DNA of 64,000 bases from Escherichia coli (GCF_030384885.1 NZ_CP128613.1), one strand, 5' to 3'; shown: positions 8,382-37,080, counted from the stretch's first letter. Notes: generated by a model not told the origin, from the sequence alone. A program made the numbers and translations.

Positions 8382-8485
8382 TGCCATATGCGGCGCGAAC
8401 GCCTTACACGGCCTACAAAAGTTTGCAAATTCAATAAATTGCAGAATTCATGTAGGCCTGATAAGCGAAGCGCATCAGGCATTTT
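8382..8485. repeat. REP/BIME palindromic cluster
   Basis: gccatatgcggcgcgaacgccttacacggcctac ... gtaggcctgataagcgaagcgcatcaggc between sbp and pfkA. Confidence 0.75.
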
Positions 8486-13459: not shown

Positions 13460-13545
<86 letters not shown>

Positions 13546-16525: not shown

Positions 16526-17560
16526 ATGAGTAACGCGATTACGATGGGGATATTTTGGCATTTGATCGGCGCGGCCAGTGCAGCCTGTTTTTACGCGCCG
16601 TTCAAAAAAGTAAAGAAATGGTCATGGGAAACCATGTGGTCAGTCGGTGGGATTGTTTCGTGGATTATTCTGCCGTGGGCCATCAGCGCCCTGTTACTAC
16701 CGAATTTCTGGGCGTATTACAGCTCGTTTAGTCTCTCTACGCTGCTGCCTGTTTTTCTGTTCGGCGCTATGTGGGGGATCGGTAATATCAACTACGGCCT
16801 GACCATGCGTTATCTCGGCATGTCGATGGGAATTGGCATCGCCATTGGCATTACGTTGATTGTCGGTACGCTGATGACGCCAATTATCAACGGCAATTTC
16901 GATGTTCTGATTAATACCGAAGGCGGACGCATGACGTTGCTCGGCGTTCTGGTGGCGCTGATTGGCGTAGGGATTGTAACTCGCGCCGGGCAGTTGAAAG
17001 AGCGCAAGATGGGCATAAAAGCCGAAGAGTTCAACCTGAAAAAAGGGCTGGTGCTGGCGGTGATGTGCGGCATTTTCTCTGCCGGGATGTCCTTTGCGAT
17101 GAACGCCGCAAAACCGATGCATGAAGCAGCTGCCGCACTGGGCGTCGATCCACTGTATGTCGCTCTGCCAAGCTATGTTGTCATCATGGGAGGCGGCGCG
17201 ATCATCAACCTCGGTTTCTGCTTCATTCGTCTGGCAAAAGTGAAGGATTTGTCGCTAAAAGCCGACTTTTCGCTGGCAAAACCGCTGATCATTCACAACG
17301 TGTTACTCTCGGCACTGGGCGGTTTGATGTGGTATCTGCAATTCTTTTTCTATGCCTGGGGCCACGCCCGCATTCCGGCGCAGTATGACTACATCAGCTG
17401 GATGCTGCATATGAGCTTCTATGTATTGTGCGGCGGTATCGTCGGGCTGGTGCTGAAAGAGTGGAACAATGCAGGTCGCCGTCCGGTAACGGTGTTGAGC
17501 CTCGGCTGTGTGGTGATTATTGTCGCCGCCAACATCGTCGGCATGGGCATGGCGAATTAA
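16526..17560 (+). CDS. rhaT: L-rhamnose:H+ symporter
   Basis: 344-aa polytopic membrane ORF; synteny with the rha genes. Confidence 0.93.
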
Positions 17561-18405
17561 TCTTTCTGCGAATTGAGATGACGCCACTGGCTGGGCGTCA
17601 TCCCGGCTTCCCGGGTAAACACCACCGAAAAATAGTTACTATCTTCAAAGCCACATTCGGTTGAAATATCACTGATTAACAGGCGGCTATGCTGGAGAAG
17701 ATATTGCGCATGACACACTCTGACCTGCCGCAGATATTGATTGATGGTCATTCCAGTCTGCTGGCGAAATTGCTGACGCAAAACGCGCTCACTGCACGAT
17801 GCCTCATCACAAAATTCATCCAGCGCAAAGGGACTTTTCAGGCTGGCCGCCAGCCGGGTAATCAGCTTATCCAGCAACGTTTCGCTGGATGTTGGCGGCA
17901 ACGAATCACTGGTGTAACGATGGCGATTCAGCAACATCACCAACTGCCCGAACAGCAACTCTGCCATTTCGTTAGCAAACGGCACATGCTGACTACTTTC
18001 ATGCTCAAGCTGACCGATAACCTGCCGCGCCTGTGCCATCCCCATGCTACCTAAGCGCCAGTGTGGTTGCCCTGCGCTGGCGCTAAATCCCGGAATCGCC
18101 CCCTGCCAGTCAAGATTCAGCTTCAGCCGCTCCGGGCAATAAATAATATTCTGCAAAACCAGATCGTTAACGGAAGCGTAGGAGTGTTTATCGTCAGCAT
18201 GAATGTAAAAGAGATCGCCACGGGTAATGCGATAAGGGCGATCGTTGAGCACATGCAGACCATTACCGCGCCAGACAATCACCAGCTCACAAAAATCATG
18301 TGTATGTTCGGCAAAGACATCTTGCGGATAACGGTCAGCCACAGCGACTGCCTGCTGGTCGCTGGCAAAAAAATCATCTTTGAGAAGTTTTAACTGATGC
18401 GCCAC
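17557..18405 (-). CDS. rhaR: AraC-family L-rhamnose regulator RhaR
   Basis: ORF 17557-18570; start chosen at the GTG giving [13 protein letters not shown] (282 aa, matching the K-12 length as I recall it). An upstream ATG at 18495 (312 aa) is an alternative. Confidence 0.85.
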
Positions 18406-18478
18406 CGTGGCTACCTCGGCCAGAGAACGAAGTTGATTATTCGCAATATGGCGAACAAATACGTTGAGAAGATTCGCG

Positions 18479-19315
18479 TTATTGCAGAAAGCCATCCCGT
18501 CCCTGGCGAATATCACGCGGTGACCAGTTAAACTCTCGGCGAAAAAGCGTCGAAAAGTGGTTACTGTCACTAAATCCGCAGCGATAGGCGATGTCAGTAA
18601 CGCTGGCCTCGCTGTGGCGTAGCAGATGTCGGGCTTTCATCAGTCGCAGGCGGTTCAGGTAACGCTGAGGCGTCAGTCCCGTTTTCTGCTTAAGCTGTCG
18701 ATGTAGCGTACGCAGCGAAAGAGAAAATTGATCCGCCACGGCATCCCAATTTACCTCATCGGCAAAATGGTCCTCCAGCCAGGCCAGAAGCAAGTTGAGA
18801 CGTGATGCGCTGTTTTCCAGGTTCTCCTGCAAACTGCTTTTACGCAGCAAGAGCAGTAATTGCATAAACAAGATCTCGCGACTGGCGGTCGAGGGTAAAT
18901 CATTTTCCCCTTCCTGCTGTTCCATCTGTGCAACCAGCTGTCGCACCTGCTGCAACACGCTGTGGTTAACGCGCCAGTGAGACGGATACTGCCCATCCTG
19001 CTCTTGTGGCAGCAACTGATTCAGCCCGGCGAGAAACTGAAATCGATCCGGCGAGCGATACAGTACATTGGTCAGACACAGATTATCGGTATGTTCATAC
19101 AGATGCCGATCATGATCGCGTACGAAACAGACAGTCCCACCGGTGATGGTATAGGGCTGCCCATTAAACACATGAATACCCGTGCCATGTTCGACAATCA
19201 CAATTTCATGAAAATCATGATGATGTTCAGGATAATCCGCCTGCGGGAGCCGGGGTTCTATCGCCACGGACGCGTTACCAGACGGAAAAAAATCCACACT
19301 ATGTAATACGGTCAT
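18479..19315 (-). CDS. rhaS: AraC-family L-rhamnose regulator RhaS
   Basis: 278-aa ORF; recognised sequence. Confidence 0.93.
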
Positions 19316-31273: not shown

Positions 31274-34200
31274 ATGCAGGTCAGCAGAAGGCAGTTCTTT
31301 AAGATCTGCGCTGGCGGTATGGCAGGCACCACGGCAGCGGCACTGGGTTTTGCACCCAGCGTAGCACTCGCGGAAACCCGGCAGTATAAACTGCTGCGCA
31401 CCCGCGAAACCCGTAATACCTGCACCTATTGTTCCGTAGGCTGTGGGCTGTTGATGTACAGCCTCGGTGACGGAGCAAAAAACGCCAAAGCATCTATCTT
31501 CCATATCGAAGGTGACCCGGATCACCCGGTCAACCGCGGTGCACTTTGTCCGAAAGGCGCTGGCCTGGTGGATTTCATCCACTCCGAAAGCCGTCTGAAG
31601 TTCCCGGAATACCGTGCCCCTGGTTCTGATAAATGGCAGCAAATCAGTTGGGAAGAAGCGTTTGATCGCATCGCCAAATTGATGAAAGAAGACCGCGATG
31701 CTAACTACATTGCGCAAAACGCCGAAGGCGTGACTGTTAACCGCTGGCTCTCCACCGGAATGCTGTGTGCTTCCGCGTCGAGTAACGAAACCGGCTATTT
31801 AACGCAAAAATTCTCCCGCGCGCTGGGTATGCTCGCGGTCGACAACCAGGCGCGTGTCTGACACGGACCAACGGTAGCAAGTCTTGCTCCAACATTTGGT
31901 CGCGGTGCGATGACCAACCACTGGGTCGACATCAAGAACGCCAACCTCGTCGTGGTGATGGGCGGTAACGCCGCTGAAGCTCACCCGGTCGGGTTCCGCT
32001 GGGCGATGGAAGCCAAAATTCACAACGGCGCGAAGCTGATTGTGATCGATCCTCGCTTTACGCGTACGGCGGCGGTGGCTGACTACTATGCCCCTATTCG
32101 TTCCGGTACTGACATTGCTTTCCTGTCAGGCGTATTGCTGTACCTGCTGAACAATGAAAAATTCAACCGCGAATACACCGAAGCCTATACCAACGCCAGC
32201 CTGATCGTGCGTGAGGATTACGGCTTTGAAGATGGCCTGTTCACCGGCTACGACGCGGAAAAACGCAAGTACGATAAATCCAGCTGGACCTACGAGCTGG
32301 ACGAAAACGGCTTCGCCAAACGCGATACCACGCTGCAACATCCGCGCTGCGTGTGGAACTTGCTGAAACAGCACGTTTCCCGTTATACGCCAGATGTGGT
32401 TGAAAACATCTGTGGCACGCCGAAAGACGCGTTCCTGAAAGTCTGCGAATACATCGCAGAGACCAGTGCTCACGATAAAACTGCCTCGTTCCTTTACGCG
32501 CTCGGCTGGACGCAACACTCCGTTGGTGCGCAGAACATTCGTACGATGGCGATGATCCAGCTACTGCTCGGCAATATGGGGATGGCAGGCGGCGGCGTTA
32601 ACGCCCTGCGCGGTCACTCCAACATTCAGGGGCTGACGGACCTGGGGCTGCTGTCGCAGAGCCTGCCAGGTTACATGACGCTGCCAAGCGAGAAGCAGAC
32701 CGATCTGCAAACCTACCTTGCCGCCAATACGCCGAAACCGCTGCTGGAAGGCCAGGTTAACTACTGGGGCAATTACCCGAAATTCTTCGTCTCCATGATG
32801 AAGGCCTTCTTTGGTGATAAAGCGACGGCAGAAAACAGCTGGGGCTTTGACTGGTTGCCGAAGTGGGATAAAGGCTACGACGTCCTGCAATACTTCGAGA
32901 TGATGAAAGAGGGCAAGGTCAATGGCTATATCTGCCAGGGCTTTAACCCTGTTGCCTCATTCCCGAACAAAAACAAAGTGATCGGTTGTCTGTCGAAACT
33001 GAAGTTCCTCGTCACTATCGACCCGCTGAACACTGAAACCTCTAACTTCTGGCAGAACCACGGTGAGCTGAACGAAGTGGACTCGTCGAAGATCCAGACC
33101 GAAGTGTTCCGTCTGCCATCGACCTGCTTCGCGGAAGAGAACGGTTCAATCGTTAACTCCGGTCGCTGGTTGCAGTGGCACTGGAAAGGTGCGGACGCCC
33201 CAGGGATTGCGCTGACTGATGGCGAGATCCTCTCCGGTATCTTCCTGCGCTTGCGCAAGATGTACGCCGAACAGGGTGGCGCGAACCCGGACCAGGTGCT
33301 GAACATGACCTGGAACTACGCCATCCCGCATGAGCCGAAGTCGGAAGAAGTGGCGATGGAGAGCAACGGTAAGGCGCTGGCCGATATTACCGATCCGGCA
33401 ACCGGGGCGGTTATCGTCAAGAAAGGCCAACAACTTAGCTCGTTCGCCCAACTGCGCGATGACGGTACCACCTCCTGTGGCTGCTGGATTTTCGCCGGTA
33501 GCTGGACGCCAGAGGGCAACCAGATGGCACGCCGTGATAACGCCGATCCGTCTGGCCTCGGTAACACGCTGGGCTGGGCATGGGCATGGCCGCTTAACCG
33601 CCGCATTCTGTATAACCGCGCCTCCGCAGATCCGCAGGGTAACCCGTGGGATCCGAAGCGTCAGTTGCTGAAATGGGACGGCACCAAATGGACCGGCTGG
33701 GATATTCCGGACTACAGCGCAGCGCCTCCGGGCAGTGGCGTCGGGCCGTTTATCATGCAGCAGGAAGGCATGGGGCGTCTGTTTGCCCTCGATAAGATGG
33801 CGGAAGGTCCGTTCCCGGAACACTACGAGCCGTTTGAAACGCCGCTGGGAACTAACCCACTGCATCCAAACGTTATCTCGAACCCGGCGGCGCGAATCTT
33901 TAAAGACGATGCCGAAGCATTGGGTAAAGCCGATAAGTTCCCGTATGTCGGAACCACCTATCGTCTGACCGAGCACTTCCACTACTGGACCAAACACGCG
34001 CTGTTGAATGCGATTTTGCAGCCAGAGCAGTTTGTGGAAATCGGGGAGTCGCTGGCGAATAAACTTGGCATTGCCCAGGGCGATACCGTGAAAGTCTCCT
34101 CCAACCGTGGCTATATCAAAGCCAAAGCGGTGGTGACCAAACGTATTCGTACGCTAAAAGCGAACGGCAAAGATATCGATACCATCGGTATTCCGATTCA

Positions 34201-36979: not shown

Positions 36980-37080
36980 GCCTGATGCGCTGCGCTTATC
37001 AGGCCTACCAATAAACTGCAATATGTTGAATTTGCACGACTTTGTAGGCAGGATAAGGCGTTCACGCCGCATCCGGCATG
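36980..37080. repeat. REP/BIME palindromic cluster
   Basis: gcctgatgcgctgcgcttatcaggcctac ... gtaggcaggataaggcgttcacgccgcatccggcatg after fdhE. Confidence 0.8.

Follow-up and report, generated by a model that had tools for sequence, protein, structure and literature searches.

Where does translation of RhaR begin in Escherichia coli, and does rhaR overlap the end of rhaS, the gene that precedes it? We addressed these questions in a 64,000-nucleotide stretch of E. coli DNA (GCF_030384885.1, NZ_CP128613.1), referred to below as the window, in which both genes lie on the minus strand. The gene under study is the same as K-12 rhaR (b3906, NP_418342.2), which encodes the L-rhamnose-responsive activator of the rhaSR operon, a member of the AraC/XylS family. 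The original prediction, made from the sequence alone, had noted that the longest open reading frame (ORF) of rhaR begins inside the 3' end of rhaS and that two internal codons would give shorter proteins, and it left the start uncommitted. The comparative evidence supports settling this choice in favor of the GTG at position 18405. RhaR very probably starts at this codon, is 282 amino acids long, and begins 73 nucleotides (nt) after rhaS, without overlap. The start question is an ordinary, known annotation ambiguity that is already settled.

By reading the sequence and walking the frame, we found that the minus-strand ORF from 17557 to 18570 encodes 337 amino acids and has GTG 18570 as its first start, in agreement with the predicted coordinates and length. 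The single rhaR frame contains four in-frame start candidates, GTG 18570, GTG 18516, ATG 18495, and GTG 18405, which give proteins of 337, 319, 312, and 282 amino acids, respectively. The lengths that had been assigned to ATG 18495 and GTG 18405 are right, and GTG 18516 is an extra candidate missing from the prediction. It had also been anticipated that the chosen start decides whether the two genes overlap, and this holds: the three upstream candidates overlap rhaS by 92, 38, and 17 nt, respectively, whereas GTG 18405 leaves a gap of 73 nt. The features of the region are as follows.

18479 to 19315, minus strand: rhaS coding sequence, 278 amino acids, stop codon TAA at 18481-18479; the NCBIfam RhaS equivalog model matches residues 1-278 of 278.
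17557 to 18405, minus strand: rhaR coding sequence in its best supported form, GTG start, 282 amino acids, 849 nt with the stop codon (TAA at 17559-17557).
18406 to 18478, minus strand: rhaS-rhaR intercistronic spacer, 73 nt, apparently non-coding.
18413 to 18417, minus strand: Shine-Dalgarno (SD) sequence GAGGT, 7 nt upstream of GTG 18405, anti-SD duplex of -7.2 kcal/mol.
18493 to 18495, minus strand: alternative ATG of the 312-amino acid form, made by the rhaS codons GAT-GGC (Asp-Gly).
18514 to 18516, minus strand: alternative GTG of the 319-amino acid form, inside rhaS, without an SD sequence (duplex of -2.4 kcal/mol).
18568 to 18570, minus strand: GTG of the longest ORF, 337-amino acid form, 92 nt inside rhaS, without an SD sequence (duplex of -3.3 kcal/mol).
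18637 to 18639, minus strand: nearest upstream in-frame stop codon, TGA, at offset -231 from GTG 18405, bounding what is probably an accidental open frame.

The evidence that carries the assignment comes from the conservation of the start codon. One genome per species was scanned; the 80 rhaR loci obtained, of which 79 were usable, represent about 25 genera of Enterobacteriaceae. All 79 have a start codon at the position homologous to 18405, GTG in 69 and ATG in the other 10, which belong to Citrobacter and Trabulsiella. This replacement of GTG by ATG is the pattern expected of an initiator codon. The conserved start lies four codons before an L-x-L-x-K motif (three codons in Superficieibacter), and the GAGGT ahead of it is near-invariant among 62 aligned spacers, with GGAGT in its place in the Klebsiella/Raoultella group.

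Upstream of this codon the frame is closed in nearly all species. Of the 79 loci, 71 have an in-frame stop 3-48 nt before the rhaR start, which in 36 is found at 9 nt. Four loci have an open stretch of 72 nt, and in only four does the open frame reach back into rhaS (192 nt), namely in an E. coli-like Escherichia sp., Klebsiella oxytoca, Klebsiella michiganensis, and Raoultella terrigena. On the downstream side, residues L5, L7, K9, F12, and F13 of the 282-amino acid protein are invariant in eleven aligned RhaR proteins. Because of the upstream stops and these invariant N-terminal residues, no other start is possible in most species. Twenty of the 79 loci have an ATG equivalent to the one at 18495, and in just one of them, the E. 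coli-like locus L006, does it read into rhaR; elsewhere it is out of frame or opens a dead end of 13-71 codons. The nearest outgroup (L007, deposited as "E. coli E69"), whose RhaR is 93% identical, has a TGA 9 nt upstream of the start and a 72-nt spacer, and the long frame is therefore a derived feature of E. coli proper. We also shuffled the 231 nt preceding GTG 18405 a total of 5000 times, with dinucleotide content preserved, and asked how far the frame remained open. It reached 90 nt or more in 34% of the shuffles, 165 nt or more in 13%, and 231 nt or more in 5%; the length of the open frame is within chance expectation (p 0.05-0.34).

The spacer between the two genes evolves differently from the coding sequence on either side. 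In an alignment of 62 distinct spacers (alignment A2), lengths of 71, 72, 73, 75, 79, and 80 nt were found, with differences that are not multiples of three. Identity to E. coli at codon positions 1, 2, and 3 was 0.93, 0.93, and 0.54 in the last 150 nt of rhaS and 0.88, 0.90, and 0.51 in rhaR codons 5-54 (150 nt); the spacer, read in the rhaR frame, gave 0.59, 0.51, and 0.41, with no codon periodicity. By these measures the 73-nt spacer appears to be non-coding. Insertions of about 30-80 nt are present in the spacers of Salmonella, several Citrobacter, and Klebsiella indica (loci L003, L008, L009, L012, L016, L019, and L079). In the Salmonella and K. indica spacers, which were read through, the insertion is located between an AATAAT block and the SD sequence; the spacer is 105-155 nt long and the start is undisturbed. 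By eye, the Salmonella and Citrobacter insertions look like palindromes of the repetitive extragenic palindromic type (GCCGGATG...CATCCGGC). Between K-12 and this strain we found one substitution in the spacer (T/A at -49), plus strain-level polymorphism in the 3' end of rhaS.

The protein-level data agree with the 282-amino acid form. An alignment with curated RhaR had been proposed as a check of the prediction, and it came out in favor of GTG 18405: the NCBIfam RhaR equivalog models NF010025 and NF010027 have 282 positions each and begin at the residue encoded by this codon, which is residue 56 of the 337-residue ORF, with ORF residues 57-337 matching profile positions 2-282. The scores were 571.9 bits for NF010025 (cut-off, 525) and 564.8 bits for NF010027 (cut-off, 384). 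Homologs outside Escherichia cover 81-84% of the 337-residue query, which is the 282-residue part, and nearly all are themselves 282 amino acids long; in relatives, the identity of RhaR is 70-82%, beginning with residue 1 of the 282-amino acid form. The crystallized construct of the RhaR N-terminal domain in PDB entry 5U93 begins with MAHQLKLL, and that of 5U9E begins two residues later.

The paralog RhaS, which shares 35% identity with RhaR over 266 residues and the same architecture of a cupin domain followed by a double helix-turn-helix, offers a further comparison. Because residue 8 of RhaS aligns with residue 11 of the 282-amino acid RhaR, the two paralogs are collinear only if RhaR starts at GTG 18405. 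RhaS differs from RhaR in having an ATG start and in scoring below the RhaR equivalog cut-offs, and the two proteins activate different promoters. The identity of the gene as rhaR is supported by precomputed Pfam assignments on all close homologs (PF02311, PF07883, PF12833, and PF00165; an AraC-type cupin and a C-terminal double helix-turn-helix), by matches of its C terminus to the DNA-binding domains of SoxS, MarA, and AraC, and by its genomic context. It is directly downstream of rhaS, with rhaBAD divergent and rhaT convergent, and the order is the same in Salmonella and Enterobacter. For K-12 RhaR, it is known from literature cited in PMC3870299 that the protein binds the rhaSR promoter and activates it in a rhamnose-dependent manner.

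Public records point to the same start. RefSeq gives rhaR as 849 nt and 282 amino acids, 73 nt after rhaS, both in E. coli strain 2013C-4282 and in K-12 MG1655 (b3906, NP_418342.2), so that the K-12 length given in the original prediction was accurate; 282 amino acids are also annotated in eight further E. coli genomes, chosen to span the identity range. The 2-kb rhaSR segment of the window is 100% identical to that of strain 2013C-4282 and is matched by 5,423 of 5,426 complete E. coli genomes. With K-12, the locus shares the GTG start, the 73-nt spacer, and the neighbors rhaS, rhaT, rhaBAD, and sodA, with no difference of substance. The 282-amino acid RhaR of this strain differs from that of K-12 at three residues (N108S, K197E, and T267A). 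The exact K-12 sequences of 282 and 312 amino acids are each found on at least 1000 contigs in public data, and 288-amino acid calls occur as well. The locus is an example of how the longest ORF, and gene callers that prefer ATG, can mislead, with both forms abundant in public databases.

The 288-amino acid RhaR is found in some Shigella dysenteriae and E. coli records (P0126, P0131) and starts six codons before the GTG, at a codon that is CTG in this strain. Over rhaSR, identity to this strain is no more than 95-99% in most E. coli genomes, so that the strain carries a relatively uncommon rha allele. In E. coli NCTC9064 (L093, NZ_LR134315.1 4427998-4429261), an IS1A copy lies some 50 nt ahead of the rhaR GTG and replaces the 5' part of the spacer; rhaS no longer adjoins rhaR in this strain, and rhaR is nonetheless annotated as intact, with 282 amino acids.

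Together, these data indicate that rhaS and rhaR are very probably separate, tandem, non-overlapping cistrons. The two genes share one rhaSR mRNA, on which GTG 18405 is probably the (main) in vivo initiation site of RhaR in E. coli. Ribosomes would be recruited through the GAGGT 7 nt upstream, and the product would be a 282-residue AraC-family activator whose N terminus lines up with that of its paralog RhaS. Direct stop-start coupling is unlikely because of the 73-nt gap, and RhaR is probably translated independently from the GTG 18405 site. A start at the upstream stop or within a few nucleotides of it, as in overlapping coupled pairs, was not found in the other genera either, where the spacers measure 71-155 nt. 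In E. coli and its closest relatives, the spacer and the 3' end of rhaS happen to be free of stops in the rhaR frame, and this gives rise to the longer ORFs of 312, 319, and 337 amino acids, for which there is no counterpart in other Enterobacteriaceae. ATG 18495 is a by-product of the Asp-Gly codons of rhaS. The correct start fixes the residue numbering of RhaR, in which the 282- and 312-amino acid schemes differ by 30, and for the design of rhamnose-inducible vectors it tells which upstream sequence rhaR expression needs.

With its conserved weak start codon, rhaR follows a pattern reported for lacI, cra, and mlc. A survey of carbohydrate regulators lists lacI, cra, and mlc as genes with conserved non-ATG starts; the survey rests on annotation rather than on a test, and the physiological role of the weak start has been tested experimentally only for lacI (PMC11445065). 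The rhaR gene resembles these three in that GTG is also its commonest start (69 of 79 loci). By analogy with them, the weak GTG codon may help to keep RhaR scarce.

Several points weigh against initiation at GTG 18405. ATG is a stronger start codon than GTG, and ATG 18495 of E. coli is preceded by the purine-rich sequence AGGGACGGG, with an anti-SD duplex of -7.8 kcal/mol compared with -7.2 kcal/mol at GTG 18405. All 10 E. coli-type sequences in the sample, as well as L006, have this ATG and the open frame behind it, and the 312-amino acid form is often picked by gene callers. The annotation evidence is partly circular in that PGAP relies on the 282-position family models. A literature search found no experimental data on the RhaR N terminus or initiation site, and rhaR was absent from the TetRP and ribosome-signature supplements, which represent conditions under which rhaSR is barely expressed. 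Tobin and Schleif are said to have described rhaS and rhaR as partially overlapping in 1987, and their 1990 purification reportedly may have given two RhaR forms, with two in-frame starts. The numbering used by the Egan laboratory (e.g. RhaR D276) reportedly follows the 312-amino acid form.

Some of these points would be accommodated by dual initiation in E. coli, in which the main 282-amino acid RhaR from GTG 18405 would be accompanied by a minor 312-amino acid isoform from ATG 18495, made, for instance, when ribosomes finishing rhaS at its UAA re-initiate at this ATG, which would add an E. coli-specific N-terminal extension of 30 residues. The ATG is 14 nt before the rhaS stop, within the known range of termination-reinitiation, its SD-like context, at -7.8 kcal/mol, is acceptable, and its predicted accessibility is similar to that of GTG 18405; the two forms reportedly seen in 1990 and the open frame in every E. 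coli-type sequence sampled would also fit. We nevertheless consider dual initiation unlikely. The ATG is fixed by the rhaS codons GAT GGC, so that its conservation is uninformative about its use, the site lies within translated rhaS, and the pairing of AGGGACGGG with the anti-SD abuts the ATG, which is a poor spacing. The 30-residue extension has no homolog outside E. coli-type genomes, and the conservation of both starts and of the intervening coding sequence among relatives, by which dual initiation would be recognized, was not observed. The genes infB, which encodes IF2 alpha and beta, and clpB are like E. coli rhaR in having two in-frame start candidates in one ORF; unlike in rhaR, conservation covers both of their starts, and the two products of each have been demonstrated, whereas the upstream start of rhaR is absent or closed in 78 of the 79 loci. 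Within the extension, the 10 genomes and a small number of database variants together showed only four polymorphic sites. In the frame of the extension, three of them change the amino acid (A-to-V at -86, L-to-F at -27, and A-to-V at -14) and one is synonymous (-49), too few to decide; in this small sample they are compatible with an absence of protein-level constraint.

That ATG 18495 could be the sole or main start, with a 312-amino acid RhaR, a 17-nt overlap, and translational coupling of rhaS and rhaR as reportedly first described, appears highly improbable. The stronger initiator codon, the many automatic annotations and database entries with 312 amino acids, and the older numbering, which is said to follow that form, speak for it. 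Such a protein is, however, impossible in 78 of the 79 loci, and yet RhaR is conserved from residue 1 of the 282-amino acid form; the GTG and its SD sequence are conserved everywhere, E. coli included; the family models and the crystal constructs begin at the GTG residue; and the 282-amino acid K-12 protein in RefSeq is version 2 of its record (NP_418342.2). The chance that the longest ORF is real, with RhaR starting deep in rhaS at GTG 18570 (337 amino acids) or GTG 18516 (319 amino acids), is negligible in our view. Its sole support is the open frame, which is within chance expectation. Neither codon has an SD sequence (-3.3 and -2.4 kcal/mol, respectively), GTG 18570 is absent from K-12, where no start codon stands at the equivalent position and the first start in frame is 9 nt further upstream, and the initial 30 residues, which share their DNA with rhaS in a different frame, have no match.

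With RhaR taken to start at GTG 18405, the spacer ahead of it can be considered in its own right. It does not behave as neutral sequence. Across the 62 sequences from about 25 genera, its conservation is concentrated in discrete invariant or near-invariant blocks, with unconserved stretches between them. In addition to the SD sequence, the blocks are the following.

The rhaS stop codon and the five bases after it, minus strand: TAACGCGA, invariant or nearly so.
18457 to 18467, minus strand: TCAACGTATTT, consensus (A/G)TCA(C/A)CG(T/A)TTT, with T15, C16, C19, G20, T23, and T24 invariant in alignment A2 and a per-base identity of about 1.0.
18436 to 18444, minus strand: GCGAATAAT, consensus GC(T/G)AATAAT, near-invariant columns in alignment A2.

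In the insertion-bearing spacers of Salmonella and K. indica, these first three blocks stay by the rhaS stop and the SD sequence stays by the GTG. This suggests that the upstream blocks may act with the 3' end of rhaS and not at constant spacing from the start of rhaR. We regard it as unlikely that a 312-amino acid isoform arose recently in E. coli sensu stricto through lost stops, and/or that the spacer blocks constitute an undescribed cis-acting element. An element of this kind could determine how rhaR is translated, how the mRNA is processed, or the ratio of RhaS to RhaR. The spacer blocks are the only part of the locus that might repay experimental work.

Several candidate functions for the blocks were tested, and none was supported. 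A conserved RNA structure received no support: RNAalifold predicted 0 pairs from the 62 sequences, the fold of the E. coli spacer was no better than that of shuffles (z = +0.6), and two hairpins drawn by eye had 74% paired cells compared with 72% in shuffles. The UCACC block and the rhaR SD sequence (GGUGA) showed 83% pairing with one compensatory change, in the Klebsiella/Raoultella clade, in a helix that had been drawn from the same sequences. An anti-SD helix of this kind, unmasked by ribosomes that terminate at rhaS, was not supported, as the SD sequence was not less accessible than behind shuffled upstream sequence (0.36 compared with 0.40, 62 species); the 30-80-nt insertions tolerated between block and SD sequence in Salmonella and Citrobacter also oppose it. 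No internal sigma-70 promoter or intrinsic terminator was found in the spacer of E. coli, Enterobacter, or Pluralibacter, and an Rfam search of the spacer gave zero matches even at E = 10. A sequence resembling a RhaS/RhaR operator was not supported, as the spacer and the rhaBAD-rhaSR control region have no 7-mer in common, and the likeness of TCGACGTTTT to the rhaSR promoter is limited to this strain. A duplicated copy of the rhaS leader was not supported either, as the consensus of 78 rhaS leaders is unlike the spacer consensus.

At its other end, rhaR on the minus strand converges with rhaT on the plus strand (16526 to 17560), with a 4-nt overlap of the two stop codons (17557-17560), likewise in K-12 and in the identical strain. 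Elsewhere in the window, Rfam matches were obtained for the following elements.

31856 to 31914, plus strand: SECIS_3, selenocysteine insertion element, 84 bits.
13464 to 13541, plus strand: naRNA4 (CssrE).
8418 to 8459, plus strand: ES036 (CssrF).
37001 to 37043, minus strand: ES036 (CssrF).

From its map position, the SECIS_3 element is presumably inside fdoG, the gene for formate dehydrogenase-O, and we take the naRNA4 and ES036 families to represent E. coli repetitive extragenic elements.

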